64,000 nucleotides of DNA from the NCBI GenBank assembly GCA_964633415.1, contig CAZWFY010000009.1, positions 7,389 to 71,388 on the forward strand, given 5' to 3'. The notes beneath the pieces were generated by a model that was not told the origin of the DNA, searched no databases, and worked only from the letters and a program-made list of their open reading frames with translations. The translations under genes were made by a program, and so were the position numbers. Origin of the DNA: an uncultured Clostridia bacterium. GTDB lineage: Bacteria; Acidobacteriota; Aminicenantia; UBA2199. This document shows positions 9,832-27,943 of this stretch, piece after piece; position 1 is the stretch's first letter, and the number at the start of each line of letters is the position of its first letter.

Positions 9832-9833
9832 AA

Positions 9834-12368
9834 ATGATTAAAAAAACAAATTCCAAACTATTGTTTTTTTCTATCCCAATTATAGTGATATTGCTTTTTT
9901 TCATTGGGAAAAACTTATTGTTTGTTAAAAAAGCAGGACATGGAATGAATGTAATTCTGATAACCGTGGATACACTCAGAGCCGATCATGTCGGAGTTTA
10001 TAATAAAAATGAAGAGAGCATTACACCGAATATTGACAAACTTGCCGACGAAGGAGTTATCTTCAAACATTGTATAGCTCATACCCCTTTAACTCTTCCT
10101 TCTCACGTATCTATTCTTTCCGGAACATATCCTCTGTATCACCAGGTTAGAGATAACGGCAGTTTCATTGTTCCTGATGAGTTGAAATTTATCAGTGAAA
10201 TATTTAAAGAAAACGACTATTCCACTTCAGCTTTCATTGCTGCATTTGTTCTCCATTCAAAGTGGGGGCTCGCTCAGGGATTTGATACTTATAGTGATGA
10301 TTTTGATCTTTCACTCTATAAAACCGTCTCACTAAGTAAAATCGAATTTAAAGCGGAAAAAGTTTTTAACAATGCAAAAAAATGGATAAAGGAGAATAAA
10401 AAAAATAAATTTTTTTCATGGATACATCTTTACGATCCACATTATCCCTATTCTCCCCCATCCCCTTTTCTTAATAAATACAAAAAAGATCTTTACAAGG
10501 GAGAGATCGCATACACCGATTCTATGATTGGAAAATTCATAAAATTTTTAAAAGATGAAAATATTCTTGATAATACAATTATTATTTTAACAGCAGATCA
10601 CGGAGAAGGAAGAGGTGATCATAAAGAAGACAATCACGGTTTCTTCATTTACGAATCCGTTATACATGTGCCGGCTCTGATCAGAGCTCCTTTCAAATTC
10701 CATGTAAAAAATTTCACCCAAACGATAGGTCATGTTGACCTGATGCCTACGATTCTCGATCTTGTCGGTCTCCCGATTCCCGACTCATGTCAGGGAAGAT
10801 CACTCGTGAATGAATTAAACGGGGAAAAAGCAGTAAATGAAATTACATATACGGAAACATATTATCCTAAGTTTCATTATGGATGGTCGAATTTAAAAGC
10901 TCTCTATTCCGGTAATTATAAATTTATTCTTTCACCGAAACCCGAGCTTTTTAATATTTCCACCGACAGGAATGAATCTGATAACATCTATTTTAAATAT
11001 TTTAATCAAGCCGGAAAGATTAAAAAACAGATGGAAATTTTTATAAAAAAGTTTTCAGAGAACAGAATATCTCCGATAAAGAACAATAAAATGAACACTG
11101 CCGATATGAAAAGATTTAAATCTTTAGGATATCTTTCAGGAAGTATAAAGATTGATAACAAAACACCACTTGCAGATCCGAAGGAAAAGTTTTTTATTGT
11201 TAAAAAAATCAAAAACGCTATGAGTTTTGTCAAAGCAGGTGATCTGGATTCTGCAACAAAACTGGTTATGGAGATACTCGGAAATGACAACCGGATAATT
11301 GACGCTCACGTTGTTCTCGGGAACATCTATGTTGATAAGAGCAATTATAAAGAAGCTTTACAATGTTTTAACAGAGCAATGAAATTAAAACCTCACTATA
11401 ACATTATAATGGGCAATGTGTTGAATTGTTATATAAAATTAAAAATGTATGATGCCGGCATAAACAGGGGGATTGATTTTTTAAAGATTTTCCCGAGAGA
11501 TGCAACGATCCTATTGAAACTCGGTGAATTCTATTTTTTAAAAAAAGAGTATAAAAAGTCGGAAAAATATTTCACTAACTCTTTGGAACAAAACCATTTT
11601 AATTCAAAAGTTCTATTCCGCCTTGCTGAAATAAATATTATAAAAAACAATAAGAAAAAAGCCAAAGAATTTATAGAAAAGATAAAAAACATTAAACCTG
11701 ATCATAAAATGCTTCCATATCTTTATATAAAGCTCAATCTTTTGGAAGGAAATCTATCCAAGGCAGTTAAACTGCAGGAACAAGAGATAAAAAACAATCC
11801 TCTGAACGCCGATTCGATTTATAATCTCGGATTGCTTAATCTTAGACAAAATAATCATAAGAAAGCCCTTGGAAACTTTTTTTCCGCAAAAAAACTAAAT
11901 CCCGGACTGAGAGGACTTAATTTGAGAATTGCACAAATCCTCGGACGTAGAGGTAACCATAAAAAAGCTGAAAAATATTTAAGGGAAGAACTCAAGTATT
12001 TTCATAATTCAATTCCTGCTTACTATGGTCTGGCAATTGAATTATATCAACAGAGAAGATTAAAAGCTGCAGTTATAAATTTCAAAAAGGCTATTGCTCT
12101 CAAACCTGATTTTGTAGATGCTCTTTTTAACCTCGGAGTTGTTTTATCCGAAATGGGGGAAAAAAAAGAGGCTATATCATATTTCGAAAAACTTATCATG
12201 ATGAAACCTAAAGATATCTATGCAAGAATAAAACTTGGAGAGTTAGTAAGAATAACCGACAAAAAAAGAGCATTATCTCATTTCAAAATCGCTTTAACAC
12301 TGGCAATTGAAAAAGGGGACAAAGCATTAATTAAAAAAATAAAAGCATGGATCTCATACCTCAAATAA
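9834..12368 (+). CDS. Membrane-anchored sulfatase-fold (alkaline phosphatase superfamily) enzyme fused to a C-terminal TPR domain
   Basis: Metal-site motif NVILITVDTLRADHVG. The site equivalent to CxPxR reads HTPLTLPSHVSILSG. N-terminal TM. About 350 aa of TPR repeats at the C-terminus. Confidence 0.75.
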   Translation: MIKKTNSKLLFFSIPIIVILLFFIGKNLLFVKKAGHGMNVILITVDTLRADHVGVYNKNEESITPNIDKLADEGVIFKHCIAHTPLTLPSHVSILSGTYPLYHQVRDNGSFIVPDELKFISEIFKENDYSTSAFIAAFVLHSKWGLAQGFDTYSDDFDLSLYKTVSLSKIEFKAEKVFNNAKKWIKENKKNKFFSWIHLYDPHYPYSPPSPFLNKYKKDLYKGEIAYTDSMIGKFIKFLKDENILDNTIIILTADHGEGRGDHKEDNHGFFIYESVIHVPALIRAPFKFHVKNFTQTIGHVDLMPTILDLVGLPIPDSCQGRSLVNELNGEKAVNEITYTETYYPKFHYGWSNLKALYSGNYKFILSPKPELFNISTDRNESDNIYFKYFNQAGKIKKQMEIFIKKFSENRISPIKNNKMNTADMKRFKSLGYLSGSIKIDNKTPLADPKEKFFIVKKIKNAMSFVKAGDLDSATKLVMEILGNDNRIIDAHVVLGNIYVDKSNYKEALQCFNRAMKLKPHYNIIMGNVLNCYIKLKMYDAGINRGIDFLKIFPRDATILLKLGEFYFLKKEYKKSEKYFTNSLEQNHFNSKVLFRLAEINIIKNNKKKAKEFIEKIKNIKPDHKMLPYLYIKLNLLEGNLSKAVKLQEQEIKNNPLNADSIYNLGLLNLRQNNHKKALGNFFSAKKLNPGLRGLNLRIAQILGRRGNHKKAEKYLREELKYFHNSIPAYYGLAIELYQQRRLKAAVINFKKAIALKPDFVDALFNLGVVLSEMGEKKEAISYFEKLIMMKPKDIYARIKLGELVRITDKKRALSHFKIALTLAIEKGDKALIKKIKAWISYLK

Positions 12369-12450
12369 AATATTGCAACAAGAACAGGATAAAATCACTT
12401 GACTATCAGATTTAATATTGATAACATCAAAAAATATCTATTTACCGGAA

Positions 12451-12936
12451 ATGAAAATGAAAAAATATATATTTATAGGAATAACGATTCTGTCACTGTT
12501 TATCTTTTCCATCTCATGCAAAAAAAAATTCGGTGAATTCAATCTTCAGCAACTTTCCGGAAATATAGTCTATAATGCCGTAAATAACACCTCTTCTCTT
12601 CAACTTCAGGTAAAAGGAACTACATTAAATTATATTAAAGGTTCATTTAAAAAATGGTATTTTGTTATCTACAACAGCGATAATGAAGAATTGTTAAAAA
12701 TTTCAGATGAAAACTATATGAATATCAGTTCCGATATAGAGGTTCAAAAAACAGATGTAGATCTTTACTATGATGGATTTCTGATTGTTAAAACAACAAA
12801 GAATATTCCCGGAGACATATTAAACGGGGGAACTCCCGACAGACTGTTATTAAGATGTACAATAGAAGATCAGTATGGAAATAAAACCGAACATGTTTTA
12901 ATGGGTCTTGTCCAGTATTTTAAAATCGAATTTTAA
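12451..12936 (+). CDS. Hypothetical lipoprotein
   Basis: MKMKKYIFIGITILSLFIFSISC signal peptide with lipobox Cys. No family recognised. Confidence 0.45.
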   Translation: MKMKKYIFIGITILSLFIFSISCKKKFGEFNLQQLSGNIVYNAVNNTSSLQLQVKGTTLNYIKGSFKKWYFVIYNSDNEELLKISDENYMNISSDIEVQKTDVDLYYDGFLIVKTTKNIPGDILNGGTPDRLLLRCTIEDQYGNKTEHVLMGLVQYFKIEF

Positions 12937-13183: not shown

Positions 13184-16100
13184 ATGAAAAAGATTGTGTT
13201 ATTTATTTTTGCAGTCACACTTCTGGTTTTTCTTGGAAATAATATCTATTCCCAAGAACAATCCGGAGAGGTTATCGGAACTGTCGTATTAGAAGACGGT
13301 TCTGCTATTCCCGGAGTTCTTATCGAAGCAAGCGGTAAGAATCTGATAGGAAAGAAAACTGCCGTTTCCGATGAAAACGGAGCTTTTAGAATTCTGGGAT
13401 TACCCCCGGGAGAGTATAACTTTGTTTTCACACTTGAAGGATTTAAAACCTACAAGAGAAACGGAGTAACGATAGTTCTCGGAAAAACCATTAAACTGAA
13501 CATCGTAATGGAAACGGGCGTTATAAAAGAAGAGGTGGTTGTTTCCGGAATGGCACCGGTTATTGATGTCAGAAACAGTGCGGCTGCCGTAAACATCTCC
13601 AAGGAAGTTTTCCTCAAACTCCCCAAGGGACGTGATTTTACAAGTCTTATTGTAACTCAGGCAGGAGCAAATAATGAAAACATCGGTGGCGGACTTCAGA
13701 TGGAAGGTGCATCAAGTTCAGAGAACACTTTTTTTGTTGACGGTGTTAACACGACAACAATAGAAGGCGGAGTTTCCGGACAGAACATCAGCTATGACTA
13801 CATTGAAGAAGTACAGACCAAAACTACCGGTTATAATGCAGAGTTCGGCGGATCAATGGGTGGAGTTGTAAATGTAATAACGAAGAGTGGTGGTAATGAA
13901 TTCCACGGCGATCTGATCACATATTTCAATGCGGATTTCCTTAATGGAGAACCGAGAGATTCTCTAAGATTAAATCCTATTGACAGTACGAAAGCCGAAT
14001 ATTTTCATTATCCGAAAGACAAATATACTTCCATTGAGCCCGGTTTTTCTCTCGGCGGTTATCTGATAAAGGATAAAGTTTGGTTCTACGGAAGTTTTGT
14101 TCCGAGATTATTCAAACAGACAAGACAAGTAGATGCTATCGGACATCCGGAAGCAGCCGGAAAAGAGTATTCATACACGAGAACTTATTTTAAGGGATCG
14201 GGAAAAATTTCAGCGGCAATCACACCAAAACTTAGATTAACATTGTCGGGAACTCTTGATTCGCAGGAAGTTAAAAAAACACTTCCTCCTCAGTCAGGAT
14301 CATTTAATCCAAACGCATCCACATATGAGGATTACGGTTATAAGTATCCCGGACTGACACTTGCAGCAGGAATTGACTGGTCTATCGGAGATAACTCTTT
14401 CCTGAATGTTCAGGGAGGATATTTCCGTACAAATGCATACAGCACGAATATTCCTGAAAATGTACCGACAAGATTACGTCATATATATTCAAACTATGAT
14501 ATTCCGGGAATGCCGGATGATCTTAAAGTTCCCAGAGGATACTCAAATGTAGGATGGAGTGATATCTATCTTGATACAAAAAATATCGCAAGAAAAGTTT
14601 CAGCTAAAGCCGACTTCACAACTTATCTGAATGCAGGCGGTGAACATGTAATTAAAACAGGTTTCGGATGGAACCAGTTGTTCATGGATAAGAGTCAGGG
14701 TATCAATACACCTTACTGGGCTTTCTATTGGGGCAAATCCATCTATACAAAATTAGACGGTACCGTTGTTCCGGTAAAATACGGTTATGCAAGAGAACTC
14801 GGACCTTACGGAACAATTGCAGATGCAACAAGCAACAGATTTTCCTTCTACCTTCAGGATAGTTGGACAATTAAAGATAAGTTGACGATAAATTATGGTG
14901 TCAGACTTGAACAGGAAGAGATTCCTGCAATGGCTAAGGGTCATCCTACAGCTTTTGAATTTAAGTTTTTTGACAAGATCGCACCGAGATTCGGTTTTGC
15001 ATATGATATGAAAGGCAACGGAAAAACAAAGCTTTTCGGTAGTGCCGGAATCTATTATGATGTTATGAAACTCGACATGGTCGCCGGTTCTTTCGGTGGA
15101 TTAAAATGGGAAGATTCATGGTATGAAATCGTAAATCTTGACTGGAGACTTTATGACGGTCAGAAAGGATGGAGTTTTACAGGTTCAACCGATCCTATCA
15201 ACGGCGGACAGTTCTTAGAACATAAGAACCACAGAATCCCATCATTTGATACTATCCAACCGGCAGACTCAATGAAACCCATAAGCAAGATGGAGGTTTC
15301 TCTCGGATTTGCCCAGGAATTAAGCAACAACCTGGCTTTTACATTAAGAGGTTCATACAACAAAATGCTTCAGACTATCGAAGATATCGGTGTTCAGACT
15401 CCTTTGGGAGAAAAATACTTTATCGCTAATCCCGGTAGTGATTGGATAAATGCAAAGTATAAAGAATCCGGTGATGCAGGACTTATGCCTCCGGGAAGGA
15501 AATGTCCGGCTCCTAACAGAGAATATTATTCTCTTACATTCCAACTTGATAAAAAATTCTCAGATAACTGGTTGGGTGGTGCTTCATTAACCTTAAGCAG
15601 ACTTACAGGTAACCATTCGGGTCTTGCAAGTTCCGATGAATACGGAAGACATAATCCCGGTGTTGAAAGATATTGGGATCTCTGGTTCTTTATGTATGAT
15701 TCACACATGAAAGAAGTTATCGGACTGCTTCCGACGGACAGACCGATGGATTTTAAATTCTACGGAGCATACACCTTTGATTTCGGTCTTACAGTCGGTT
15801 TTAACGGTTATGCAAAGAGTGGAACTCCATTGTCAACCGAATTCATGCTCGACAACCAGCAGGGATGGTATCCGAACGGTAGAGCCGACCTCGGAAGAAC
15901 ACCATTCATCTGGCAGATCGATTCTTACATTGAATACACATTAAAGCTCGGTAAAGCTAATCTTCAGCTAAGTGCCAATATCTCCAATCTCACAAACAAC
16001 AATATCGCAAGAAGAACATACACTCGTATTTATGACGCAGCCGTATATCTCAGTGATTCGGAAATCGCACAGGGTTTTGATGTTGATACCGTCATGAAAT

Positions 16101-16192
16101 CTCTGGGACTTGAACGTGACCCGAGATTCTTGATGAATCATACTTTCCTTCCTCCAATCTCAATCAGACTCGGAGCTAAAATATCATTCTAA
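13184..16192 (+). CDS. TonB-dependent outer-membrane receptor (CarbopepD_reg-like domain + plug + beta-barrel)
   Basis: AAGGAGG RBS. Signal peptide. GTVVLEDGSAIPGVLIEASG...ENGAFRILGLPPGEY is a carboxypeptidase-regulatory-like domain. Plug FFVDGVNTT...GGVVNVITKSGGNEFHG. C-terminal ...GAKISF ends in an aromatic residue. Confidence 0.8.
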   Translation: MKKIVLFIFAVTLLVFLGNNIYSQEQSGEVIGTVVLEDGSAIPGVLIEASGKNLIGKKTAVSDENGAFRILGLPPGEYNFVFTLEGFKTYKRNGVTIVLGKTIKLNIVMETGVIKEEVVVSGMAPVIDVRNSAAAVNISKEVFLKLPKGRDFTSLIVTQAGANNENIGGGLQMEGASSSENTFFVDGVNTTTIEGGVSGQNISYDYIEEVQTKTTGYNAEFGGSMGGVVNVITKSGGNEFHGDLITYFNADFLNGEPRDSLRLNPIDSTKAEYFHYPKDKYTSIEPGFSLGGYLIKDKVWFYGSFVPRLFKQTRQVDAIGHPEAAGKEYSYTRTYFKGSGKISAAITPKLRLTLSGTLDSQEVKKTLPPQSGSFNPNASTYEDYGYKYPGLTLAAGIDWSIGDNSFLNVQGGYFRTNAYSTNIPENVPTRLRHIYSNYDIPGMPDDLKVPRGYSNVGWSDIYLDTKNIARKVSAKADFTTYLNAGGEHVIKTGFGWNQLFMDKSQGINTPYWAFYWGKSIYTKLDGTVVPVKYGYARELGPYGTIADATSNRFSFYLQDSWTIKDKLTINYGVRLEQEEIPAMAKGHPTAFEFKFFDKIAPRFGFAYDMKGNGKTKLFGSAGIYYDVMKLDMVAGSFGGLKWEDSWYEIVNLDWRLYDGQKGWSFTGSTDPINGGQFLEHKNHRIPSFDTIQPADSMKPISKMEVSLGFAQELSNNLAFTLRGSYNKMLQTIEDIGVQTPLGEKYFIANPGSDWINAKYKESGDAGLMPPGRKCPAPNREYYSLTFQLDKKFSDNWLGGASLTLSRLTGNHSGLASSDEYGRHNPGVERYWDLWFFMYDSHMKEVIGLLPTDRPMDFKFYGAYTFDFGLTVGFNGYAKSGTPLSTEFMLDNQQGWYPNGRADLGRTPFIWQIDSYIEYTLKLGKANLQLSANISNLTNNNIARRTYTRIYDAAVYLSDSEIAQGFDVDTVMKSLGLERDPRFLMNHTFLPPISIRLGAKISF

Positions 16193-16228
16193 GCTCATAA
16201 CTGAATAAATCAGTTATAAAATAAAAAG

Positions 16229-16263
16229 AGCCCTCTTGTTTGCACAAGAGGGCTTTTTTTTTA
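16229..16263 (+). terminator. Rho-independent terminator (11-bp GC-rich stem agccctcttgt/acaagagggct, then a T9 run)
   Basis: Perfect inverted repeat followed by a poly-T, read directly 37 nt after the receptor stop codon. Confidence 0.75.
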
Positions 16264-16487: not shown

Positions 16488-17510
16488 TTATTTGGCTCCT
16501 TTAAGACTATCAACAACAGCTTTAATACCGTCTGCTTCCGGAGATTTCGGATCCAATTTAAGAAATTTTTTAAAACTTTCAACAGCAGATTTGATATCAC
16601 CCTTATTAAGATAAGCATAGCCAAGCTTTAAATATGGTACTGACCATTTCGGTTTTATTTTAGATGCTATTTTATAATACTTGATTGCACCTTCGGAGTT
16701 ATTGTTACCAAAATAGATCTCTCCTACATTATATGCAAGGATCTCATCTTTAGGATTCATATTTATCGACTTCATAAAATATTCCTGCCCTCTCTTAAGA
16801 TCATTCTTCTTAACCAAAACCTCACCTATTCCCGCAAGAGATTTTGCTTTAATCTCAATTCCGTCTCTATTTTCTTTAGCATTTTTTATTACCGATTCAT
16901 ATTCGGTTATTGCTTTTTCATACTCTGCTTTTTCCTTGAAACATTTACCTATATAAAAATGAACCTGATATATATCAGGATGCTTATCGGCAAAATTTTG
17001 AAATGAAATAAGAGCTTTATCATATTTTTTTTCTTTTAAGAGTTTAATCCCCTCATCTATTGATTTTACATCCGATTTCAATTGTTCCGTAGCTATCTCT
17101 TCCACTGACTTTTTTAAAACCATCTTAACATCACGGTTTTTGTTCATTGTAAAAACTTCGAGACTTTTTGTGGCAGGAGAATAATTTTTATAAGTAACTG
17201 TAATTTTCCAGTAACCGTATCCAAGCGTTGAAAAGATCCATACTCCTTTTTTGTTTGTAACAGTGCTGAAAACCCGTCTGTTTTCTTCTTTAATAGGAAT
17301 TATCTCAGGTTTACTCCCCGATTTCTTAATTGATCCGATCAATTGAATTTCCACATTTGCTCCGGAAACGGGAGATTTGTCTTCAAAAAAAACAAACCCT
17401 TTCAGTCTGCCTTTACCTACTCCTGTTTGTGAATAAGCAATCTGGGATAGTAATAAAATCCCGGATATCATAAAAATAAGAAACATTTTTTTTTGTAAAT
17501 TCATTATCAC
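16488..17510 (-). CDS. Secreted TPR-repeat protein with N-terminal CarbopepD_reg-like domain
   Basis: Signal peptide. GRLKGFVFFEDKSPVSGANVEIQ beta-sandwich-like N-terminus. At least four TPR-like repeats (YQVHFYIGKCF..., AYNVGEIYF...). Confidence 0.6.
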   Translation of the reverse strand: MIMNLQKKMFLIFMISGILLLSQIAYSQTGVGKGRLKGFVFFEDKSPVSGANVEIQLIGSIKKSGSKPEIIPIKEENRRVFSTVTNKKGVWIFSTLGYGYWKITVTYKNYSPATKSLEVFTMNKNRDVKMVLKKSVEEIATEQLKSDVKSIDEGIKLLKEKKYDKALISFQNFADKHPDIYQVHFYIGKCFKEKAEYEKAITEYESVIKNAKENRDGIEIKAKSLAGIGEVLVKKNDLKRGQEYFMKSINMNPKDEILAYNVGEIYFGNNNSEGAIKYYKIASKIKPKWSVPYLKLGYAYLNKGDIKSAVESFKKFLKLDPKSPEADGIKAVVDSLKGAK

Positions 17511-17531
17511 TCCTAAAATTATATATAAAAT

Positions 17532-18503
17532 TTAATTTTTTATCGCAAATTTTATTTTTTTTCTTGTCTCTTTATTATCTGTATGGTTCTTGAGTATTAC
17601 TGTCATAACATATTTTCCCTGTTTTAAATCTATTGGAAATTTAATTGTATAATTATCCGACATATCATCCAGGTCCTTTTCAGTCAGCCTTATCTTAAAC
17701 TCTCTTTTTTTCACAATTTCCTTTTTTGTTTTCATTCTTACTATTTTCAAAGTCACTCCTATTGTGGTGGTATTATAAAGCCCTCCTTCCTCAGGTGTAA
17801 AAGAGATCGTAGAAAATGGAATAGTGAGTGAAAGTAATATTTTACCCTTGGACTTTTTATTCAACTTAATATTAAAATCCATAGGGATTTTTTCTCTGGA
17901 CACTTTAGGTTTAAGCATAATTCCAACAGTATTTAGCATTCCGATCTGTCTGGCACTGATCGGTGAAATTTTAAAATCATTTATTTGAAAATAATCAACA
18001 AAAATCACAGGAAAATTACCATACAACCAGACAATATGAGGATATGAATCTAAGGGTCTTTCTCCTGATCGAGAATAAATTTTACCCTGATAGAACCTTC
18101 GTTGGGACGGAGGTCCCAATATCATGTATATTCTTCCTCTATCTGTTTTCCATCCGCTTTTTTTCCCATTCCTGAAATATTTGTTGGCATATCTCATTCT
18201 GTTGTAGTATTCGGTTTTAAACTCATTCTCTTCCGTTCCGGGATCAGGATCTCTTTTTTCCCAGAACTCCTTTTTGAAAATCTCACGATCTTTCTGATTT
18301 GTCAGCGATAAGAATTTTTTCCTTTCCTGCTTTGTTATTATAAGAGAAACCTCATTCAGAAATATTTTATCATTTTCCGGTAGACTTTTGACAAGGATTC
18401 CGGAGCTGTTACAACCGTTTGTTAATATAAGAGTTGTCAAGAAAAACAAAAAAATAACAAATAAGATATTTCTATTTTTTATCTGCATTTCCATTCCTCC
18501 CAT
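17532..18503 (-). CDS. GWxTD-domain protein
   Basis: GWKTDRGRIYMILGPPSQRRF matches the GWxTD signature. N-terminal signal or lipoprotein-like sequence. The true start may be an internal Met, since 32 nt overlap the next gene. Confidence 0.65.
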   Translation of the reverse strand: MGGMEMQIKNRNILFVIFLFFLTTLILTNGCNSSGILVKSLPENDKIFLNEVSLIITKQERKKFLSLTNQKDREIFKKEFWEKRDPDPGTEENEFKTEYYNRMRYANKYFRNGKKSGWKTDRGRIYMILGPPSQRRFYQGKIYSRSGERPLDSYPHIVWLYGNFPVIFVDYFQINDFKISPISARQIGMLNTVGIMLKPKVSREKIPMDFNIKLNKKSKGKILLSLTIPFSTISFTPEEGGLYNTTTIGVTLKIVRMKTKKEIVKKREFKIRLTEKDLDDMSDNYTIKFPIDLKQGKYVMTVILKNHTDNKETRKKIKFAIKN

Positions 18504-20532
18504 TCAGCTTGTTGATCTTTTCTATTATCTTTTTTTGTTTAGGCATTATCGCAAGGGATTTTTTCCATATTCCGAGAGCTTGATCTCTTTTGCCCAATTT
18601 AAGATAAGCATCACCAATAGAATTTAATATATCAATGTTTGTCCCTGTATAATCAAGAATCTTTCTGAAATATTCTATTGCCTTTTCATAATCTTTTAAT
18701 GCCATAAGCGAATAACCCATAACCTGATAGAAATTATAGCGTTGATTAGTTTTGAGAAATTTTGTTCCGATTGAAATGTTTTTTCTGTGTTGCCCCAATA
18801 AAAAGAGAATCTTACAATAATCATATGCAATTATACTATTCCTTGGATTTTTATAGTAGGATTCTCTTAATATCTTATATCCTTTCAGATAATTTTCGGA
18901 ATTAACATATTGGTTCCCTATTGTATTGGAAATATATGGGTCATTCTTTAAGTTGGATAATGAAATATTCCATGCTCTCTTAATTATTTTATTAAGCGGA
19001 ATTATAAAAGGAACTGTTTCCACAGCGATAATTTTACCTTTAGAGAACAATTTTACTTCAATTTCATAATAGGAAGGTTTGAAACCCTTCAGATCAAACG
19101 AATGGAAAACATTAATATTCTTCGGGAAATTTAAAATTTCCAATTTATTTTTTTTAATAGCAACTAAATCTTTTTTCAATGAAATCAATACATAGCTTCC
19201 GTTATAATCATTCTCATTCATACCGATTATTTGACAATACACATGCAATTTATCATTTTGTGAAAAATCATTTTTAGGAGACATAACCATCTGTTTATTG
19301 TTAATTAAAAACGGCTTGAGTATATTTCTATTATTCTCTTTTATCTCATATGACAGGATAGGTTTCATAATTATAGGAGTTTTAGGATTGGGAATAACAA
19401 CTCTTTTTTCCATAGATGTAAACTCTTTGGAAACAACATTTCTTATTAAAATATTAATATCATATTTTCCTTCGATCAACGGAAACATATCCTGGAAATT
19501 AAAAAGTTTATTATAAATAGATGAAAGTTTTTTTACATCTATTGAAACGGGAACTTTTTTACTGAAACTGTAAACAACCTTTTTATTCTCATTGATAGCA
19601 CTACCTATCACTTCGAGAGTGGAATAGAGTTTGTCATCACGTCTCTCAAGAGAAAGCTTTTTAGGTTCGATCAGATAGTGAACAAAAAATATTCCGTTAT
19701 CATCTCTTATTACACTTATCTTCGAGCTGTTTGGAATATAATTTGTTGAATATTCCACATCTATATACTCTTTATACTTCAACAATTTTGATGCATAAGC
19801 TGTATTTATCCTCTTAGTAGGGGCTTCCACTACTCTTTTCTGGATAAGAATATCGGAAGCCATAGTCGGTTTTCCAAAAGAATTTATATCACCCTCTATG
19901 AGATTTAAGGATACTTTTGCCACATCCGGATCTATTCTAACCAGCTCATTATACGATTTCTTTGTATCACCAGTACTTCCTTTATAATGCATAAGTAGGG
20001 AAGCCGGACCATTTTGAATCGGACTATACAATACATAGTCACCGCTATTATACGGCTTGAAAAAAACAACGTTAAATGCATTAGGAAGCCCGTACTTCGC
20101 AAGCCCCTGATAATACCAGATAACAATCGGTCTCAATTCAGTCTCATGTTCATATCTTAAAATCGATTTCGGCTTACCAAGTGTTATATATATCCTCCCC
20201 ATTTCCGTTTTCCATCCGGGAGTGGGTGTACCTCTTCCGAAAGTATCGGTAGCATATTTCAGTCGTTTATAATGTTCATTTTTATATTCATTGATTATTG
20301 TATTATGATTCGGATCTCTGTTTTTCCAGAAAGCATTGATAAACATATCTCTCTGCAGGTCGGTCTCAAGCATTTTAAAAATTTTTCTTTCAGCCTTTGT
20401 GATTATATAAGCTACATCTTTCTCCAACCATTTTCTATATCTTAAACCGAGTTTATGACTTTTTTTTGCCGGTATTAAAAAATTAACCGAAACAACAAGA
20501 ATAATCAGTCCGAATAAGAATCTCCTTTTCAT
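18472..20532 (-). CDS. GWxTD-domain protein with C-terminal TPR repeats (paralog of the downstream gene)
   Basis: Signal peptide. GWKTEMGRIYITLGKPKSILRYE motif in the same position as in the neighbour. C-terminal TPR-like repeats (AIEYFRKILDY..., ALGIWKKSLAI...). Confidence 0.65.
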   Translation of the reverse strand: MKRRFLFGLIILVVSVNFLIPAKKSHKLGLRYRKWLEKDVAYIITKAERKIFKMLETDLQRDMFINAFWKNRDPNHNTIINEYKNEHYKRLKYATDTFGRGTPTPGWKTEMGRIYITLGKPKSILRYEHETELRPIVIWYYQGLAKYGLPNAFNVVFFKPYNSGDYVLYSPIQNGPASLLMHYKGSTGDTKKSYNELVRIDPDVAKVSLNLIEGDINSFGKPTMASDILIQKRVVEAPTKRINTAYASKLLKYKEYIDVEYSTNYIPNSSKISVIRDDNGIFFVHYLIEPKKLSLERRDDKLYSTLEVIGSAINENKKVVYSFSKKVPVSIDVKKLSSIYNKLFNFQDMFPLIEGKYDINILIRNVVSKEFTSMEKRVVIPNPKTPIIMKPILSYEIKENNRNILKPFLINNKQMVMSPKNDFSQNDKLHVYCQIIGMNENDYNGSYVLISLKKDLVAIKKNKLEILNFPKNINVFHSFDLKGFKPSYYEIEVKLFSKGKIIAVETVPFIIPLNKIIKRAWNISLSNLKNDPYISNTIGNQYVNSENYLKGYKILRESYYKNPRNSIIAYDYCKILFLLGQHRKNISIGTKFLKTNQRYNFYQVMGYSLMALKDYEKAIEYFRKILDYTGTNIDILNSIGDAYLKLGKRDQALGIWKKSLAIMPKQKKIIEKINKLNGRNGNADKK

Positions 20533-20589
20533 TTTTCCTCCTGCACATTCGTTAAAATTATAGCATTATATCTTGAAAAATCAACAAAT

Positions 20590-22242
20590 TCAGTTTGTTT
20601 CGGATGTGATATATTTCATGTCGGATTTATCGGTAAGAAGATCAATAACAGAGATAACACAACTATATTCACCTTCTTTAAATTTAGGAAAATTTATAGA
20701 AATTGAAAATATTCTATTCTCGGATACCAATATTTTCTCATTATCAAATCTTACATTTCCAAAACCATCGGTTATTTTTATATGAATCTTTAGTTTTCCG
20801 AGTTTTTTCTCACCTTCTTTTCTCAGATAAAAACCGTTTATTGAAATTTTTAATTTTTTTTGATTGAAAACAGCATTCAATATTTTTACCGCCGGTATTT
20901 TTTTTTCCATTTTTTTAAAATAATTTTTTATATAATCCTGTCTTATATTGTTATCAAAAACAACTCTATATTTTTCATCGGACGTCACTACTTTTATTTT
21001 CCCCTTTTTATCATCCGAAGGAGAATATGTCAGCATGTATAAAATATCCTTTTTCTTTACAATTTTATCTAAGGATTTTTTAATATTATTGGAGGATATA
21101 AGATCACCGCCTGTTATCCTTGTCAATTCCCTGAAATTATTTTCAATGTCGGTTGAGACTCTTTTATACTCTATATCATTAGAAAGAAGACTGTTTTGGG
21201 TTTTTATAAATATAGTTTGAAAAACCGCACCTACTTTATAAAACAGCTTGGAAATCTGTTTGGTCGGAAAATCCTGACTGACATTAAGCGAGAGATTTAT
21301 CCTTACCAATAAACTTGAAAGGATCTGTGCATAAGATATATCCTCCCCTCTGTCACTTATCCGAAGGTTGTTTATTAGATTTTTCACATAATTAACTATT
21401 TCCCCGGTCGGTTTTAATCTTGGGAACAACTCCATCTGATAAAAATTCACAACCCATTTTTCCCCTTTGATTCTATCGAGATATTGAGCAAAATTATAAT
21501 AACCGTTAATACTGGGAGTCAGATATCTTCTCTTATATTCATTCCATAATTTAAGGTAATCCCCAAGCATTTTTCTTACTTCATCCGCCGGATTAGACCT
21601 TCCTCCTCCCGAAGCTAATTCAGACCTCATTCTGTAAATAATTGTCTTTATCTTCTCAACTTCCGTTACCTGTCTCATTCTTGCTTTTTTACTCTCTTTG
21701 GAGATCATTTTTAATACAAGTTCGAGAATCCTTTTCTTTCCTTTTAAATTATCAAGTATAAAGGTTCTGTTATTGACAAAGATCATCAACCTGTCTCTCT
21801 CTCTTAAAACTTTTTCAAATATATAAGTAACTCCCTCCCTTAGAGATTTGTTCAATTTAGTCGTTCTGAATACGAGAACAAAATATCTTGAAGATTCTTT
21901 TCTTTTCTGAATTATTTCACTGTTTTCTTTAAGATCATCAACAATAATCGTTATACTTTTCCTTTTGATCCAGAAACCGTTGATCTTCTGCAATTTTCCG
22001 TCTTCATACAGTTTAAAATCCCCTTTTTTAAGTTCATCAATAGGTTTCCCTTTATAAAACACTCTTACGGGAACTTCGACATTAACGACGGAAACATTTT
22101 CAACAATTCGCTTCTCTTTTTTTTTAATTGATCCGTATAAACTCAAGGATAAAACAGATATGATCAGCGACAATAAAATAAAGCTTTTTTTTAAGTTAAA
22201 CTTATCTCTTTCCATTTGAGATTTTATACGTATTGCATTCAT
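20590..22242 (-). CDS. Hypothetical membrane-anchored protein, N-terminus resembling VWFA-related (TIGR03436-type) domain
   Basis: Single N-terminal TM. VSVVNVEVPVRVFYKGKPIDELKKGDFKLYEDGKLQKI resembles the conserved start of vWFA-related Acidobacterial-type proteins. The rest is unassigned. Confidence 0.4.
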   Translation of the reverse strand: MNAIRIKSQMERDKFNLKKSFILLSLIISVLSLSLYGSIKKKEKRIVENVSVVNVEVPVRVFYKGKPIDELKKGDFKLYEDGKLQKINGFWIKRKSITIIVDDLKENSEIIQKRKESSRYFVLVFRTTKLNKSLREGVTYIFEKVLRERDRLMIFVNNRTFILDNLKGKKRILELVLKMISKESKKARMRQVTEVEKIKTIIYRMRSELASGGGRSNPADEVRKMLGDYLKLWNEYKRRYLTPSINGYYNFAQYLDRIKGEKWVVNFYQMELFPRLKPTGEIVNYVKNLINNLRISDRGEDISYAQILSSLLVRINLSLNVSQDFPTKQISKLFYKVGAVFQTIFIKTQNSLLSNDIEYKRVSTDIENNFRELTRITGGDLISSNNIKKSLDKIVKKKDILYMLTYSPSDDKKGKIKVVTSDEKYRVVFDNNIRQDYIKNYFKKMEKKIPAVKILNAVFNQKKLKISINGFYLRKEGEKKLGKLKIHIKITDGFGNVRFDNEKILVSENRIFSISINFPKFKEGEYSCVISVIDLLTDKSDMKYITSETN

Positions 22243-22320: not shown

Positions 22321-23919
22321 ATGTTTAAGATTAATGATGATCATAAAAGAGAACTTGAAAAAAAAGAGATAACCGTACAATCTTTTTTTTCTCAACTTGA
22401 GAAAATCAGTACCGGCAGTTCATATATTGAACTTGACAGACCTTCTCTTCCGTATGACGGGATAAAGATTTTATCAACTGAGGAACAAGAGAGAATGATC
22501 TCCATATTTTCAAAAAAAAGCAGATTTTATAAAATATCTAAATTTGTTCCCGCTTCCGGTGCGGCAACGAGAATGTTCAAAACGCTGTTCGAAATAAGAC
22601 ATTTGTTGGGATCAAATTCATTTTCAGACAAAATTTTAATGGAAAATTATGAGAATAATCATACTTTAGTGGAATTTGAAACATTTTTAAAAGGAATATA
22701 CTTAAAAAAATTTGCTTTCTCAGAAGATATTTATGTGATTCTAAAGAAAATTGGATTGGGAACCAAAGAGGTTTTGCAAAAAGAAAATTACAGTATAATT
22801 GTCAACTCGATTCTCGATAAAAATGGACTCGACTATGGTAATACACCTAAAGCTCTCATAAAATTCCATAAATATCAGGATACGGGAATAACACCTCTTG
22901 AAGAACACATAAGCGAAACCTGCCTCTATATGGGAAACGATAATCGTGAAAAAATGATTCATTTCACTCTATCTGATCAATATAATGATAAAATTTCTCT
23001 TTTTCTTGATGAGTTAAAAATAAAGTTCTCAAAGATAGGAATGAATTTTTCATATGAAATATCTTCTCAAAATAAAAATACGGATACGGTTGCAATTGAT
23101 CTTAAAGGTAATCCCGTCACTACTCCCGAAGGTAAATTACTCTTCAGACCCGGAGGACACGGCTCTCTCCTCTATAATTTAAACAATATGGACAACGATC
23201 TTATCTTTATCAAAAACATTGATAACATCACAACTTATGATCGTATAAACAGCTCTGTCAATTATAAAAAAATAATGGGTGGAATGATAATTGAGATAAG
23301 AGAAAAAGTTTTTAAATATTTAAACCTTCTTCCGGAGATAAGAAAAGATTCTGAAATTATAAACGATATATATTGTTATTCAAAAGATGTATTGAATATC
23401 GGTTTCAGTAAAGATTTCTCCGAATTTGATATTAATAAAAAAAAAGAGATATTGAAAAACAGACTCAATCGACCTATCAGAGTTTGCGGTATGGTTGAAA
23501 ACAGAGGAGAACCCGGTGGAGGACCATTTTGGATAAAGGGAAATTCCGGCGAAAACATTCTGCAAATCGTGGAAAAAGCTCAGATCAACACATCCGACCT
23601 GAAGCAGATGGAAATCTTAAAAAATTCAAAATATTTTAATCCCGTTGATATCGTCTGCAGCATAACTGATTTCAAAGGGGAAAAATTTCACCTCCCGGAT
23701 TTTTCAGATGAAACGAAATATTTTGTTTCCGAAAAAGATTATAACGGAGAAAAAATCAGAGTATTGGAACATCCCGGACTATGGAATGGAGCAATGTACG
23801 ATTGGATCACTATCTTTGTCGAAACACCTGTTGAAACTTTCAACCCTGTAAAAAGTGTTAACGATCTTTTGAAGAACAATCATATTCCCAAAAAAAATAT
23901 ATGTTTTTATTCAAGATAA
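22321..23919 (+). CDS. DUF4301-like protein, putative UGPase-type nucleotidyltransferase fold
   Basis: PASGAATRMFK, IFIKNIDNITTYD, RPGGHGSLLYNL and ENRGEPGGGPFWIK resemble the UDP-sugar pyrophosphorylase motifs LNGGLGTxMG, SNxDNL, PxGHGD and EGG, respectively. Confidence 0.45.
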   Translation: MFKINDDHKRELEKKEITVQSFFSQLEKISTGSSYIELDRPSLPYDGIKILSTEEQERMISIFSKKSRFYKISKFVPASGAATRMFKTLFEIRHLLGSNSFSDKILMENYENNHTLVEFETFLKGIYLKKFAFSEDIYVILKKIGLGTKEVLQKENYSIIVNSILDKNGLDYGNTPKALIKFHKYQDTGITPLEEHISETCLYMGNDNREKMIHFTLSDQYNDKISLFLDELKIKFSKIGMNFSYEISSQNKNTDTVAIDLKGNPVTTPEGKLLFRPGGHGSLLYNLNNMDNDLIFIKNIDNITTYDRINSSVNYKKIMGGMIIEIREKVFKYLNLLPEIRKDSEIINDIYCYSKDVLNIGFSKDFSEFDINKKKEILKNRLNRPIRVCGMVENRGEPGGGPFWIKGNSGENILQIVEKAQINTSDLKQMEILKNSKYFNPVDIVCSITDFKGEKFHLPDFSDETKYFVSEKDYNGEKIRVLEHPGLWNGAMYDWITIFVETPVETFNPVKSVNDLLKNNHIPKKNICFYSR

Positions 23920-24007
23920 ATCTGCTGTCACATATATTATTCATGATCATACTATTCTTGAAAAACAAAAAATTGACTAATTTCAGTAATTATAATAGCA
24001 TTTTCGT

Positions 24008-24493
24008 ATGAACTTATTCTCTTTTATAGGATGGTCAGGAAGCGGAAAAACCACTATCATCACACTTTTAATAAAAGAACTTATTTCGAGAGATTTCAGT
24101 ATTACCTCAATAAAACATGTTCCGGGGAAATTTTACCTTGAACCGGAATCAAAAGACAGCTTTAAATATCTTGCAAATGGTGCCGAAGAAGCTTTTATCC
24201 TCAGCTCAAAAGAATTAATAAATACAATGCTGATCGATGAAAACTTTAATATATTTGACAAATACAAGAAAAAATTTGATCAATATGACATGGTTTTTGC
24301 AGAGGGATTAAGCTACGGCAATTATCCCGTGTTTGAAGTTTTTGACTCAACAAAGAATGACCGTCTGAAAGGAGATCCGAAAAAAATAACGGCAATTATC
24401 GGAGATAAAAATATTATTGAAGGGATCAGGTTTTTTGAAAGAGATGACATTGTTGGAATTGCCGACTTTATAGAGAAATTAACAAAAAAATAG
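24008..24493 (+). CDS. mobB: MobB-like P-loop NTPase (molybdopterin-guanine dinucleotide biosynthesis adapter family)
   Basis: FSFIGWSGSGKTT Walker A, IKH, KDS and ADFIEKL align along the length of MobB. Confidence 0.65.
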   Translation: MNLFSFIGWSGSGKTTIITLLIKELISRDFSITSIKHVPGKFYLEPESKDSFKYLANGAEEAFILSSKELINTMLIDENFNIFDKYKKKFDQYDMVFAEGLSYGNYPVFEVFDSTKNDRLKGDPKKITAIIGDKNIIEGIRFFERDDIVGIADFIEKLTKK

Positions 24494-24526
24494 AATTTGA
24501 TACATTTTTTCAAGAAGGAGGAAACT

Positions 24527-24943
24527 ATGAAAAGTTATAGAAAAGAGTTGTGGTTTGAATCTAAAGAAAGAAGGAAGTTTTTTCACATAACACCTTTAAT
24601 TCGGAAATGCCTCAAGGAGAGCGGCATAAAGGAAGGAATTCTTCTTTGTAATGCCATGCATATTACTGCAAGTGTTTTTATTAACGATAATGAATCCGGA
24701 CTGCATGCCGATTTTGAAAAATGGCTCGAAAAGCTTGCACCGGAAAAACCATACTCACAATATAAACATAATGGTTTTGAAGATAACGGAGATGCACATC
24801 TTAAAAGAACCGTCATGGGAAGAGAAGTTGTAGTCGCAATAACAGACGGAAATCTTGATTTCGGTCCTTGGGAAGAGATCTTTTACGGCGAATTTGACGG
24901 AAAAAGAAGAAAAAGAGTACTTGTTAAAATAATAGGCGAATAA
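24527..24943 (+). CDS. YjbQ/UPF0047 family protein (secondary thiamine-phosphate synthase-like)
   Basis: [36 protein letters not shown]...[35 protein letters not shown] matches YjbQ family conservation. AAGGAGG RBS 8 nt upstream of the chosen ATG. Confidence 0.7.
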
Positions 24944-25154
24944 ATTTGTTAAAAAAAATAAAAATAATCATTCATTTATCATAATAAGTGTGATAAAATC
25001 CTTCCTTAAAAAAAGGTTTAATAAAATGACAACTTTTTCAAAGAGAAAAAAGTGAATCCGGGCAAAGATATCAATATGATTGATAAAAAAACCCTGATAT
25101 CCTTTTCATTCATCAGGTTTAAAAAAAACAAATCAAAAATACAGGGGTATTTTA

Positions 25155-25445
25155 ATGGAAAAAGATGAAAAACTGATCAATTCCGAAGCACTGGAACGAA
25201 GATCAAAGAAAAAACCTTCTCCAAAAGAGAATAGTTTGTACGTTATAAGCAAATATTGTAAGGGATGCGGACTTTGCGTTGATGTTTGTCCCACAGGTAC
25301 ACTGTTACTTGAAGACAACGTCGAGAGTAAATTCGGAATTTCAGTCAGAGTTGATGCACCGGAGTTCTGTATAGGATGCAAGATATGTGAGAACAGATGC
25401 CCCGATTTTGCAATATTTTCCAATTATGACCAGGAGAAACAATGA
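25155..25445 (+). CDS. porD: 2-oxoacid:ferredoxin oxidoreductase delta subunit (2x[4Fe-4S] ferredoxin)
   Basis: CKGCGLCVDVCP and CIGCKICENRCP cluster motifs. Immediately upstream of, and overlapping, the alpha subunit. Confidence 0.8.
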   Translation: MEKDEKLINSEALERRSKKKPSPKENSLYVISKYCKGCGLCVDVCPTGTLLLEDNVESKFGISVRVDAPEFCIGCKICENRCPDFAIFSNYDQEKQ

Positions 25446-26563
25446 CAAAAAGAAAAGTATATCAGGGTAATATAATCGTAGCAAAAGCGGCAATAGCGGC
25501 CGGATGTAACTTTTTTGCGGGATATCCGATAACACCTTCTTCGGAGATAGCTCAATATATGTCAAGAGAATTCCCGAAAATAGACAGAGATTTTATCCAG
25601 ATGGAAGATGAGATCGCTTCTCTCGGAGCTTGTATCGGAGCTTCACTTTCCGGGAAAAAAGTTTTAACCGCAACAAGCGGACCGGGATTTTCCCTTATGC
25701 AGGAACACCTCGGTCTTGCTGTAATGGCGGAAATCCCCCTTGTAATAGTAAATGTTATGAGAGGAGGTCCCTCCACAGGAATGCCGACAAAACCTTCTCA
25801 AGCGGATATAATGCAAGCCAAATGGGGAACACATGGAGATCATCCTATAATCACACTATATCCTGCCTTTGCAGATGAAATTTTTTCAGAAACGGTAAGA
25901 GCTTTTAATTTATCCGAAAAGTTCTGGAATCCTGTCATTCTGCTTCTTGACGAAGTTATTGCCAAAGCTCATGAAGATATAGAAATTCCCGACCAGAAGA
26001 ATATTGAAATATATAAATACAAATCGAATACATTAAAGGATCTTAATATCTATGACAGAATAATCGGCGAAAAACCACCGAGAGTTGATTTTTTCGAAGG
26101 ATATCCCATTCATATAGACGGACTTGAACATGATTCTCACGGATGGCCTTCTTACGATGCGGATACAGCAGATAAAATGCAAAATTTAAGACTACAAAAG
26201 ATCAATGATCATCTTGATGAAATAATAGAGTTTAAAGAATATTTTATGGATGATGCGGAAATTATGGTCTTTTCTTTCGGTGTCTCTGCAAGAGGAGCTC
26301 TTGCAGCTGTAAGAGAAGCAAGATCAAAGGGAATCAAAGTCGGTCTTTTTCAAGCTTTAACAATATGGCCATTTCCTGAAAAAGCACTCATTGAAAGATT
26401 TAAAAAGATAAAAAAGGTGCTTACTGTTGAAATGAATATGGGACAGACCAAATATGAGATAGACAGAATTGCAACTGACGATATTGAAAGAAAAGCATTG
26501 CTTAGAGCAAACGGCATACCTTTTACACCTAAAGAAATTGTAAAATCAATCGAGGAGTTTTAA
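25442..26563 (+). CDS. porA: 2-oxoacid:ferredoxin oxidoreductase alpha subunit
   Basis: GNIIVAKAAIAAGCNFFAGYPITPSSEI N-terminal signature of POR/KOR alpha. Confidence 0.85.
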   Translation: MTKRKVYQGNIIVAKAAIAAGCNFFAGYPITPSSEIAQYMSREFPKIDRDFIQMEDEIASLGACIGASLSGKKVLTATSGPGFSLMQEHLGLAVMAEIPLVIVNVMRGGPSTGMPTKPSQADIMQAKWGTHGDHPIITLYPAFADEIFSETVRAFNLSEKFWNPVILLLDEVIAKAHEDIEIPDQKNIEIYKYKSNTLKDLNIYDRIIGEKPPRVDFFEGYPIHIDGLEHDSHGWPSYDADTADKMQNLRLQKINDHLDEIIEFKEYFMDDAEIMVFSFGVSARGALAAVREARSKGIKVGLFQALTIWPFPEKALIERFKKIKKVLTVEMNMGQTKYEIDRIATDDIERKALLRANGIPFTPKEIVKSIEEF

Positions 26564-26564
26564 A

Positions 26565-27410
26565 ATGAGAAATTATGAAAAATATATCAGATACAGAACT
26601 TTTCCTACTCCCTGGTGTCCGGGATGCGGGGACGGAACAATCCTCAAATCAATTGCAATGGCATTTGCCGAACTTGACATTGATCCTAACGATATAATTG
26701 TCGTAGCGGGAATCGGATGTTCAGGAAGAATGCCTACATTCTTTAATACAAATACACTTCACACAACTCACGGCAGAGCACTTACATTTGCAACGGGAAT
26801 AAAACTTGCGAGACCTGAAAAGATGGTTGTTGTTATTTCAGGTGACGGAGATGCATTGGCAATAGGCGGAAATCATTTGATTCATGCAGCAAGAAGAAAT
26901 ATCGGTATTAAAATGATCTTACTGAATAACGGAGTATACGGAATGACAGGAGGTCAGGTATCACCTTTAACTCCTCAAAAATTTATAACCGAAACAACTC
27001 CCTATGGTAATATTGAGCCTAAATTCTTAGCCGCTGAACTCTTAATTGCAGCAAGAGCTACATTTGTTGCCCGTGAAACGGTAAACAGACCGGTTCAGCT
27101 AAAAAATGTCATTAAAAAATCTTTTCTTCACTCGGGTTTCTCGGTTGTCGAGGCAATAAGCAATTGTCATATTAATCTCGGTCGGAGAAATAAGATGAAA
27201 AATCCTGTCAAGATGACCAAATGGATCGGGGAAAGAACCGTAACAAAAGAACAATATGCAAAACTAACTCCAAAAGAGAGAGAACACAAATATCCCGTAG
27301 GTGTCCTTCAGGAGACAACGGACAGATATGAATATTCCGAACTTTATCATAAACATATAGTCCCGGCCGCGAAACAAGCGGTAGCGGAGAATAATAAGGG
27401 GAAAAAATGA
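26565..27410 (+). CDS. porB: 2-oxoacid:ferredoxin oxidoreductase beta subunit (TPP-binding)
   Basis: WCPGCGDG and GDGDALAIGGNHLIHAARRN TPP/Mg site. Confidence 0.85.
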   Translation: MRNYEKYIRYRTFPTPWCPGCGDGTILKSIAMAFAELDIDPNDIIVVAGIGCSGRMPTFFNTNTLHTTHGRALTFATGIKLARPEKMVVVISGDGDALAIGGNHLIHAARRNIGIKMILLNNGVYGMTGGQVSPLTPQKFITETTPYGNIEPKFLAAELLIAARATFVARETVNRPVQLKNVIKKSFLHSGFSVVEAISNCHINLGRRNKMKNPVKMTKWIGERTVTKEQYAKLTPKEREHKYPVGVLQETTDRYEYSELYHKHIVPAAKQAVAENNKGKK

Positions 27411-27943
27411 ACGAAAGATATGAGATAAGATATGGTGCGGTCGGCGGTCAAGGTATAATAACGGCAGGAGCTCTGCTGGTTGATATTGCAGTGGAAAAAG
27501 AGAATAAATATGCACTTGAAAGTCCTACATATACTGCAACCGTCAGAGGAGGTCCGACAAAAGTTGATGTTCTGATCTCCGATAAAAAAATTGTCTTTCC
27601 TCAGGCAAGTGCAATTGATTTTTTTCTATGCACATTCCAAAAAACATTTGATCTCTATAAAAGCCGGTTAAAAGATGATGCCATCGTTGTTGTTGATTCC
27701 AATCTTGTTACGGATCTCGGTGACACTCACAATTGGAAGGTTTATCAGATCCCGATAATAAATGAGACAAAAAAGAAACTCGGGAATATAGTTTTAACTT
27801 CTGTTGTCACTTTATCAATAACTCAGAAACTGACGGAAATCATTGAATATGACAATATGTTAGCTTTTATTAAAAACTGGGCTCCGAAAGGATTTCTTGA
27901 TCTGAATATCAAGGCAATCGAAATAGGTCGTGATCTGGTTTAA
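27407..27943 (+). CDS. porG: 2-oxoacid:ferredoxin oxidoreductase gamma subunit
   Basis: GAVGGQGIITAGALL motif. 4-nt overlap with beta. Confidence 0.8.
   Translation: MNERYEIRYGAVGGQGIITAGALLVDIAVEKENKYALESPTYTATVRGGPTKVDVLISDKKIVFPQASAIDFFLCTFQKTFDLYKSRLKDDAIVVVDSNLVTDLGDTHNWKVYQIPIINETKKKLGNIVLTSVVTLSITQKLTEIIEYDNMLAFIKNWAPKGFLDLNIKAIEIGRDLV

Follow-up and report, generated by a model that had tools for sequence, protein, structure and literature searches.

GWxTD proteins beside an Oar-type TonB-dependent transporter: a candidate periplasmic accessory set in Aminicenantes

What two adjacent secreted proteins of the GWxTD family, a family without an assigned function, might do next to a TonB-dependent transporter is the question raised by a locus in a 64,000-nucleotide (nt) stretch of contig CAZWFY010000009.1, from an uncultured member of the Aminicenantia. 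The whole of that stretch is called the window here. The locus consists of four open reading frames (ORFs), all on the minus strand, namely G1 (20590-22242), G2 (18472-20532), G3 (17532-18503) and G4 (16488-17510), and of a plus-strand transporter gene (13184-16192). An initial interpretation made without database searches, hereafter the sequence-only reading, had described the four genes correctly as to position and common direction, had taken them together as a conserved envelope module, and had left the role of that module undefined; the links to TonB-dependent transport and to BlaR1-type sensing described below are new. The answer put forward here, tentatively and at somewhat less than even confidence, is that G2, G3 and G4 serve the adjacent Oar-type transporter as a periplasmic accessory set without enzymatic activity. 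This reading is proposed because the genes share a conserved neighbourhood with one transporter ortholog, because GWxTD domains occur fused to TonB C-terminal (TonB_C) domains, and because G4 and the transporter have a domain in common. Oar-type transporters are among the most expanded outer-membrane proteins of Acidobacteriota and related phyla, with partners and cargo that are scarcely known. For the large orphan GWxTD family, the transporter neighbourhood, the TonB_C fusion and the use in BlaR1/BlaI sensors supply a testable hypothesis, and they suggest that TonB-dependent transport in abundant, little-studied soil and sediment bacteria may include a new layer with an accessory or signalling role.

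The assignment of G2 and G3 to the GWxTD family, originally suggested by the motifs GWKTEMGRIY and GWKTDRGRIY, is borne out by both available models. TIGR04514 (cutoff 28 bits) matches G2 at 105.3 bits over residues 35-142 and G3 at 108.1 bits, and Pfam PF20094 (cutoff 26.9 bits) matches them at 42.0 and 54.9 bits, respectively. The motif that names the family reads GWKTD in G3 and, with D changed to E, GWKTE in G2, and its glycine and tryptophan are invariant or nearly so among 74 aligned sequences. The two proteins are 34% identical over ~150 amino acids (aa). In each of them the GWxTD domain directly follows an export signal, in agreement with the secretion proposed for both: ordinary signal peptides are recognisable by eye in G2, as in G4 and the transporter, and G3 is a predicted lipoprotein, whose Cys31, part of a lipobox-like stretch of consensus L-x-S-C, does not vary among 52 homologs. 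G2 (686 aa) continues from its GWxTD domain into a beta-sandwich, a further domain and C-terminal tetratricopeptide repeats (TPRs), of which residues 601-664 match TPR_2/TPR_8, and full-length orthologs of ~688 aa are widespread in Aminicenantes. The middle domain of G2 and the C-terminal sandwich of G3 are homologous (hhalign, 96.7%), and G2 can therefore be regarded as the core of a G3-like protein to which another domain and TPR repeats have been added. The longest ORF of G3 encodes 323 aa and overlaps G2 by the 32 nt that had been reported for the pair. A shorter overlap of 17 nt is more likely, because a GGAGG sequence at 18500-18496, read as a Shine-Dalgarno site, lies 7 nt ahead of the third ATG of G3 (18488), the probable start, which is also where the G3 homologues begin.

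The AlphaFold2 model of G3 (predicted local distance difference test score, pLDDT, 86.6) comprises, at residues 43-197, a helical region with a small sheet and, at residues 211-321, an immunoglobulin-like (Ig-like) sandwich. A Foldseek search of this model against the PDB returned matches to Ig-like sandwiches only; a model of the GWxTD domain by itself (pLDDT 86.5, predicted template-modelling score, pTM, 0.80) found no PDB match better than E = 1.1, and the family profile found no solved homologue by sequence. The residues invariant across G2-type and G3-type domains are aromatics, glycine and a few charged positions, E60, R84, D85 and R102 in G3 numbering. No conserved cysteine or histidine is found in the GWxTD alignments outside the lipobox, which argues for binding rather than catalysis. 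No catalytic signature is seen in G2, G3 or G4, which consist solely of binding or scaffold elements, namely GWxTD domains, Ig-like sandwiches, a CarboxypepD_reg domain and TPR repeats.

G4, a secreted protein of 340 aa, had been described as a TPR/CarboxypepD_reg protein, a description that holds. Its TPR repeats match Pfam TPR_2 at 70.5 bits; the match of its N-terminal domain to CarboxypepD_reg, at 30.1 bits, falls just under the Pfam cutoff of 32.3. Profile-level homology supports the putative CarboxypepD_reg domain, in that the N-terminal domain of G4 aligns with the N-terminal extension of the transporter (hhalign 98.8%, E 1e-16, 85 columns), and G4 orthologs give unmarked PF13620 matches. 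The transporter (1002 aa) has a signal peptide, and residues 30-110 of its extension match PF13620, the CarboxypepD_reg family, at 56.7 bits (cutoff 32.3). Its beta-barrel is matched by PF25183 (97.2 bits) and PF00593 (31.6 bits, cutoff 27). The plug is weak, with 17.1 bits against a cutoff of 23.9, and a TonB-box-like sequence, EEVVVSG, can be read by eye after the extension. A PF13620 N-terminal extension is the feature that defines the Oar subclass of TonB-dependent transporters (PMC6434023). Like Oar of Myxococcus xanthus, the window transporter places a CarboxypepD_reg extension ahead of a putative plug and the barrel; unlike it, the window protein has a sub-cutoff plug match, and no GWxTD or TPR partners have been described for Oar, which exports the protease PopC (PMC6434023). 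In Bacteroides, the CarboxypepD_reg extension of a transporter is Ig-like and needed for function, help in forming the transporter-TonB complex has been suggested for it, and domains of this type are found in TonB paralogs as well as in transporters (PMC10350073).

Conservation of the locus was followed in a scan of one genome per GTDB species, in which over 516 relatives of G3 were found. From the 80 best loci, taken with 10-kb flanks, ORFs were called and assigned to the window proteins by phmmer, and counts were restricted to loci with enough sequence. Of 64 loci, 48 have G2 immediately upstream of G3 and on its strand, and of 72 loci, 51 have G4 immediately downstream. Full-length orthologs of the transporter, scoring 624-1284 bits where more than 500 bits were required and paralogs score 30-160, are found no more than 10 kb from the GWxTD genes in 27 of the 35 loci flanked on both sides. 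When all ORFs of the 80 loci were clustered against one another, the module families were present in 80, 65, 58 and 55 loci, and the next genuine families in 24 (the sulfatase-TPR family), 13, 11 and 10. Because the flanking families are far rarer in this control, the conserved unit is the module and not general synteny. The claim of a conserved envelope module is therefore upheld for G2, G3 and G4, whose order, together with the orthologous transporter, is kept across these Aminicenantes-type loci.

The association with the transporter survives rearrangement. In the usual layout G2, G3 and G4 face the transporter gene, but in some loci the transporter is divergent and upstream of G2, in two (L018, L067) it lies on the same strand, and in five others (L004, L045, L048, L052, L063) G3 is followed by an unknown secreted protein of ~350 aa and then by the transporter, these three facing G4 and G2. 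Paralogous GWxTD clusters adjoin paralogous transporters in L012, L060 and L076, and a transporter-like ORF is found within 6 kb of 30 of the 34 GWxTD clusters that have 6 kb of sequence on both sides; the entire 64-kb window contains only one such transporter gene. The sublineage with the alternative layout (L004, L037, L045, L047, L048, L052, L063) also carries a gene for a secreted M1 metallopeptidase with an HELAH motif and a tonB gene, divergent from the G3 operon, a context that hints at peptide or protein cargo.

The wider distribution of the domain gives a second view of what it might do. A search of 1.84 billion representative proteins, clustered at 50% identity, with the G3 domain gave 7759 matching clusters at E <= 0.001, of which 3020 also have E <= 1e-10; the cluster names were uninformative on taxonomic spread. 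Among the best 150 clusters, 15 have a BlaR1-type M56 protease domain before one or, more often, two GWxTD domains, and two of these 15 (P0364, P0497) also end in TonB_C domains. Two further members of the best 150, P0383 and P0388, are G2-G3-like fusions of 988-1205 aa in which a single chain runs GWxTD-TPR-GWxTD. Both kinds of fusion recur in independent assemblies, and P0388 is present on many contigs from several sources. The M56 domains retain HExxH, and in a metagenome scan a BlaI-type repressor gene lay immediately upstream of the M56-GWxTD gene in the great majority of ~30 loci. In these systems (metagenome loci L092, L093 and L096-L125) one or two GWxTD domains form the extracytoplasmic part, sometimes followed by TonB_C domains. 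The C-terminal part of BlaR1 is extracytoplasmic, and for this reason GWxTD can be said to occupy the place of the sensor domain. The M56-GWxTD proteins and their BlaI partners look like an uncharacterised class of BlaIR-type regulatory system. The idea that the tandem domains of these sensors comprise one of G2 type and one of G3 type was not supported, both domains scoring alike with both profiles.

These fusions raise the alternative that GWxTD is chiefly a periplasmic sensor, with G2 and G3 reporting a ligand or the state of the envelope, possibly to a BlaR1-type protease encoded elsewhere. The mostly tandem placement of GWxTD in the sensor position of proteases with an intact active-site motif, and the repressor gene directly upstream of them, speak for such a role. 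In Bacteroides thetaiotaomicron, TonB paralogs with M56 or CarboxypepD_reg domains have been noted but not characterised (PMC10350073). The GWxTD relatives resemble both BlaR1/BlaI and the Bacteroides M56-TonB fusions (PMC10350073) in their M56 sensor position, their pairing with BlaI and the occasional TonB_C. G2 and G3 themselves are soluble or lipid-anchored and lack a protease, transmembrane or output domain, however, and G1-G4 and the transporter give no M56 match in Pfam or NCBIfam, the rest of the window not having been searched. Neither in the window nor in the 80 loci did an M56 gene come to notice, but no search directed at M56 or BlaI was made there, the scan for these genes covering L092-L175. 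Sensing would also leave the tight orthologous tie to one transporter unexplained, and as an account of G2 and G3 it is considered unlikely.

The near-universal presence of the module in the clade could also be read as the mark of a general envelope scaffold, a structural or biogenesis complex of TPR, lipoprotein and sandwich proteins comparable to Tol-Pal/CpoB or BamD, to which the transporter is merely a stable neighbour. The frequent proximity of a sulfatase-fold TPR protein would fit such a complex, as would TPR-level matches to the YbgF/CpoB, BamD, LapB and PilW models. Those matches, however, fall well short of the curated cutoffs and involve nothing but generic TPR repeats, the transporter tie persists through rearrangements and in paralogous copies, and GWxTD is found fused to TonB_C, so that a general scaffold role is judged quite improbable. 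Comparison with the Bat (BatA-E) operon likewise brings out differences: G4 reaches 48 bits with BatC (cutoff 175), G1 is not matched by BatA, and no MoxR gene was noted in the cluster, although no search directed at MoxR was made.

For the accessory-set reading, overlapping genes, gene fusions and tandem copies in sensors suggest that GWxTD works as a pair. G2 and G3 would thus act together, and with G4 they would form an assembly on the periplasmic side of the outer membrane, where the set might couple the transporter to the TonB machinery, or receive the cargo of the transporter and hand it on. Physical contacts, exact location, direction of transport and substrate are what we infer. Several observations weigh against the proposal. 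The transporter is usually on the strand opposite to G2-G4, which bears on co-transcription; three G3-type loci (L073, L074, L084) have no transporter within 10 kb, as is also true of one of two distant GWxTD contexts; and a transporter is nearby in only 2 of ~11 well-flanked M56-GWxTD loci. Since the modelled GWxTD fold is without a solved relative, structure seems to offer no hint of function, and no paper in the literature searched mentions either "GWxTD" or "TIGR03436". The same search did not find the module, the Oar-type link, the pairing or GWxTD as a BlaR1-type sensor, the families themselves being already named.

A more far-reaching version of the accessory-set reading would make GWxTD an unrecognised class of periplasmic adaptor, paired, that recognises TonB-dependent transporters or their cargo. 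In its free-standing form, G2 and G3 with G4, it would be an obligate partner of Oar-type transporters in Acidobacteriota, and in its BlaR1- and TonB_C-fused forms it would provide a new trans-envelope signalling route from transporter to gene expression, parallel to FecA/FecR. This extension is regarded as doubtful. G2 and G3 are clear members of the GWxTD family as it is already defined, by both models and by the motif; the pairing, the transporter link and the BlaR1 and TonB_C fusions are absent from the family description, so far as it was checked, and the family has no assigned function.

Precedents exist for transporters with dedicated partners. The SusC/SusD and RagA/RagB systems of Bacteroidota and TbpA/TbpB of Neisseria combine a TonB-dependent barrel, extended N-terminally by an Ig-like domain, with neighbouring genes for a dedicated lipoprotein and for helical-repeat proteins. 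The window transporter, a barrel with an Ig-like extension beside a lipoprotein and helical-repeat proteins, bears a resemblance to these receptors that is functional only. Unlike their partners, G2-G4 have no SusD/RagB or TbpB family match in Pfam or NCBIfam and may be periplasmic rather than surface-exposed, and the genes are mostly convergent and do not form one operon.

G1 has a different history. The sequence-only reading had included it in the module as a membrane-anchored protein with an N-terminus resembling the VWFA-related TIGR03436 proteins, and in this it was right about the hydrophobic N-terminal anchor and about a relationship to TIGR03436. The match, at 51.8 bits and E 8e-14, nevertheless stays below the curated cutoff of 81.25 bits, and consists of two stretches, the best of which covers positions 7-142 of the 324 in the model. 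G1 (550 aa) belongs to a family of ~535-aa proteins, multi-copy in Aminicenantes and without a Pfam domain, and all 49 sampled members of this family match TIGR03436 (best E 4.5e-23), G1 and the proteins checked from the loci remaining sub-cutoff. Its N-terminal domain is homologous to that of bona fide TIGR03436 members (97.8%). In an alignment read by eye, the position expected for the metal site of a VWA domain holds RYFVLVFR(I/T)T, and DxSxS was not seen. G1 is thus like the acidobacterial VWFA-related TIGR03436 proteins in that its whole family matches the model, and unlike them in its sub-cutoff score and its apparently missing metal-site motif; the function of the TIGR03436 family is itself unassigned. 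The C-terminal domain of G1 probably resembles the beta-sandwich of G3 (hhalign 88.9%).

As a conserved partner of the module, G1 is rejected both by the contexts of its orthologs and by the closest relative of the cluster. Relatives 49% and 70% identical to G1 keep a block of DUF4301, MobB, YjbQ and oxidoreductase genes, but continue into unrelated genes without GWxTD, and the contexts of G1 relatives in L006-L008 and L091 contain no GWxTD genes. In the window this block, which encodes DUF4301, MobB, YjbQ and a 2-oxoacid:ferredoxin oxidoreductase, occupies 22321-27943 on the plus strand, and it is syntenic with G1 in L006 and L091 independently of the module. Conversely, a 70% identical relative of the block made up of G2-G3-G4, the transporter, the small gene and the sulfatase-TPR gene has a transposase and a 91-aa ORF in place of G1. 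Because the relatives of G1 keep the DUF4301 side and the relative of the cluster is without G1, G1 can be placed at the junction of two synteny blocks. In that closest relative an IS200/IS605-type Y1 transposase gene (L089, 8484-9623) is situated just upstream of G2, where the window has G1, and an insertion of this type is a possible source of the difference in gene order.

At the level of the family, the association with VWFA-related proteins fares better than it does for G1 itself. TIGR03436-type genes, several of them well over the cutoff at 143-214 bits, are immediate same-strand neighbours of GWxTD genes in 10 of the 80 loci, in three arrangements. The first has a VWFA-like gene of 537-546 aa followed by G2, G3 and G4, as in the window (L016, L066), the gene being distantly related to G1; the second has a small GWxTD lipoprotein, then the VWA gene, then G3; and the third has G2 and G3 followed by the VWA gene. 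Proteins of ~1400 aa on two contigs (P0499/P0520) combine three GWxTD domains, a Big_7 domain and a VWA domain in one chain. Such neighbourhoods, and the P0499 fusion in particular, are what would be expected if VWFA-related, TPR and Ig-like proteins built an adhesive or matrix structure at the cell surface, broadly as the sequence-only reading had suggested. G1 is not a conserved neighbour, however, and appears by eye to be without the metal-binding DxSxS motif; a VWA gene is missing from most modules, and there is no sign of surface exposure, so that a surface role of this kind is held to be very unlikely. The possibility that VWFA-related proteins replace G4 by way of a shared N-terminal sandwich was also rejected, homology to CarboxypepD_reg having a probability below 20%.

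Two further observations concern these families. A third, small GWxTD lipoprotein of ~220 aa, with a lipobox of L-A-S-C and a score of 21 bits that is below the Pfam cutoff, occurs beside the transporter or before TIGR03436-type VWA genes, and was seen in L030, L031, L055-L057, L062, L071, L073, L080, L083 and L086. Paralogs of the G1 family are clustered next to exbB/exbD, three of them in L008 (10001-18069), and one lies near tonB in L004 (2282-5074), which may be a second, loose tie between VWFA-related proteins and the Ton system.

The remaining features of the locus concern its layout. Both the TonB receptor and the strong terminator that had been placed immediately upstream of the cluster in opposite orientation are present, but the transporter gene is tail-to-tail with the cluster and therefore lies beyond its 3' end, and not transcriptionally upstream. 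The terminator is a bidirectional intrinsic one between the convergent G4 and transporter genes (16223-16260, called on both strands), with a 17-pair stem that includes 6 G-C pairs, a run of A before it and a run of T after it. A promoter-like site on the minus strand (20557-20584) lies in the 57-nt gap between G1 and G2 and reads TTGATT, a 16-nt spacer and TATAAT, with an upstream TG; it is a consensus match only, and such sites are not more numerous in the region than expected from shuffled sequence. The G+C content of the window is ~31-41%, and the closest named relatives of the locus proteins belong to Candidatus Aminicenantes / Acidobacteriota. Record titles of many module-bearing genomes (L010, L013, L016, L017, L023, L045 and others) name Eubacteriales, Clostridia, Methanosarcinales, Parcubacteria or Deferrimicrobium, and look unreliable for taxonomy.

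On the far side of the transporter lie two more plus-strand genes. The first, just upstream of it (12418-12936), encodes a small predicted lipoprotein of 172 aa with a lipobox-like S-I-S-C after a hydrophobic stretch and no family match. A homolog turned up in L018 alone; at the equivalent position L090, the closest relative, carries a gene of 157 aa. The window gene, which is clade-specific, was rejected as a general module member since it is not conserved upstream of transporter orthologs elsewhere. The second (9810-12368) encodes a membrane-anchored protein of sulfatase fold that ends in TPR repeats and is often, though not always, found near the module; it is present in 13 of the 35 fully flanked loci and in L090. 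It has sub-threshold matches to the arylsulfatase family and to MamA-like TPRs, and reads T-L-P-S-H at the site of the C/S-x-P-x-R formylglycine motif of sulfatases (PLTLPSHVSILSG). Because the nucleophile position holds threonine, a feature of phosphotransferases and phosphodiesterases with the same fold, the protein may not be a sulfatase. Paralogs of this protein are found up to three in a row in L084.

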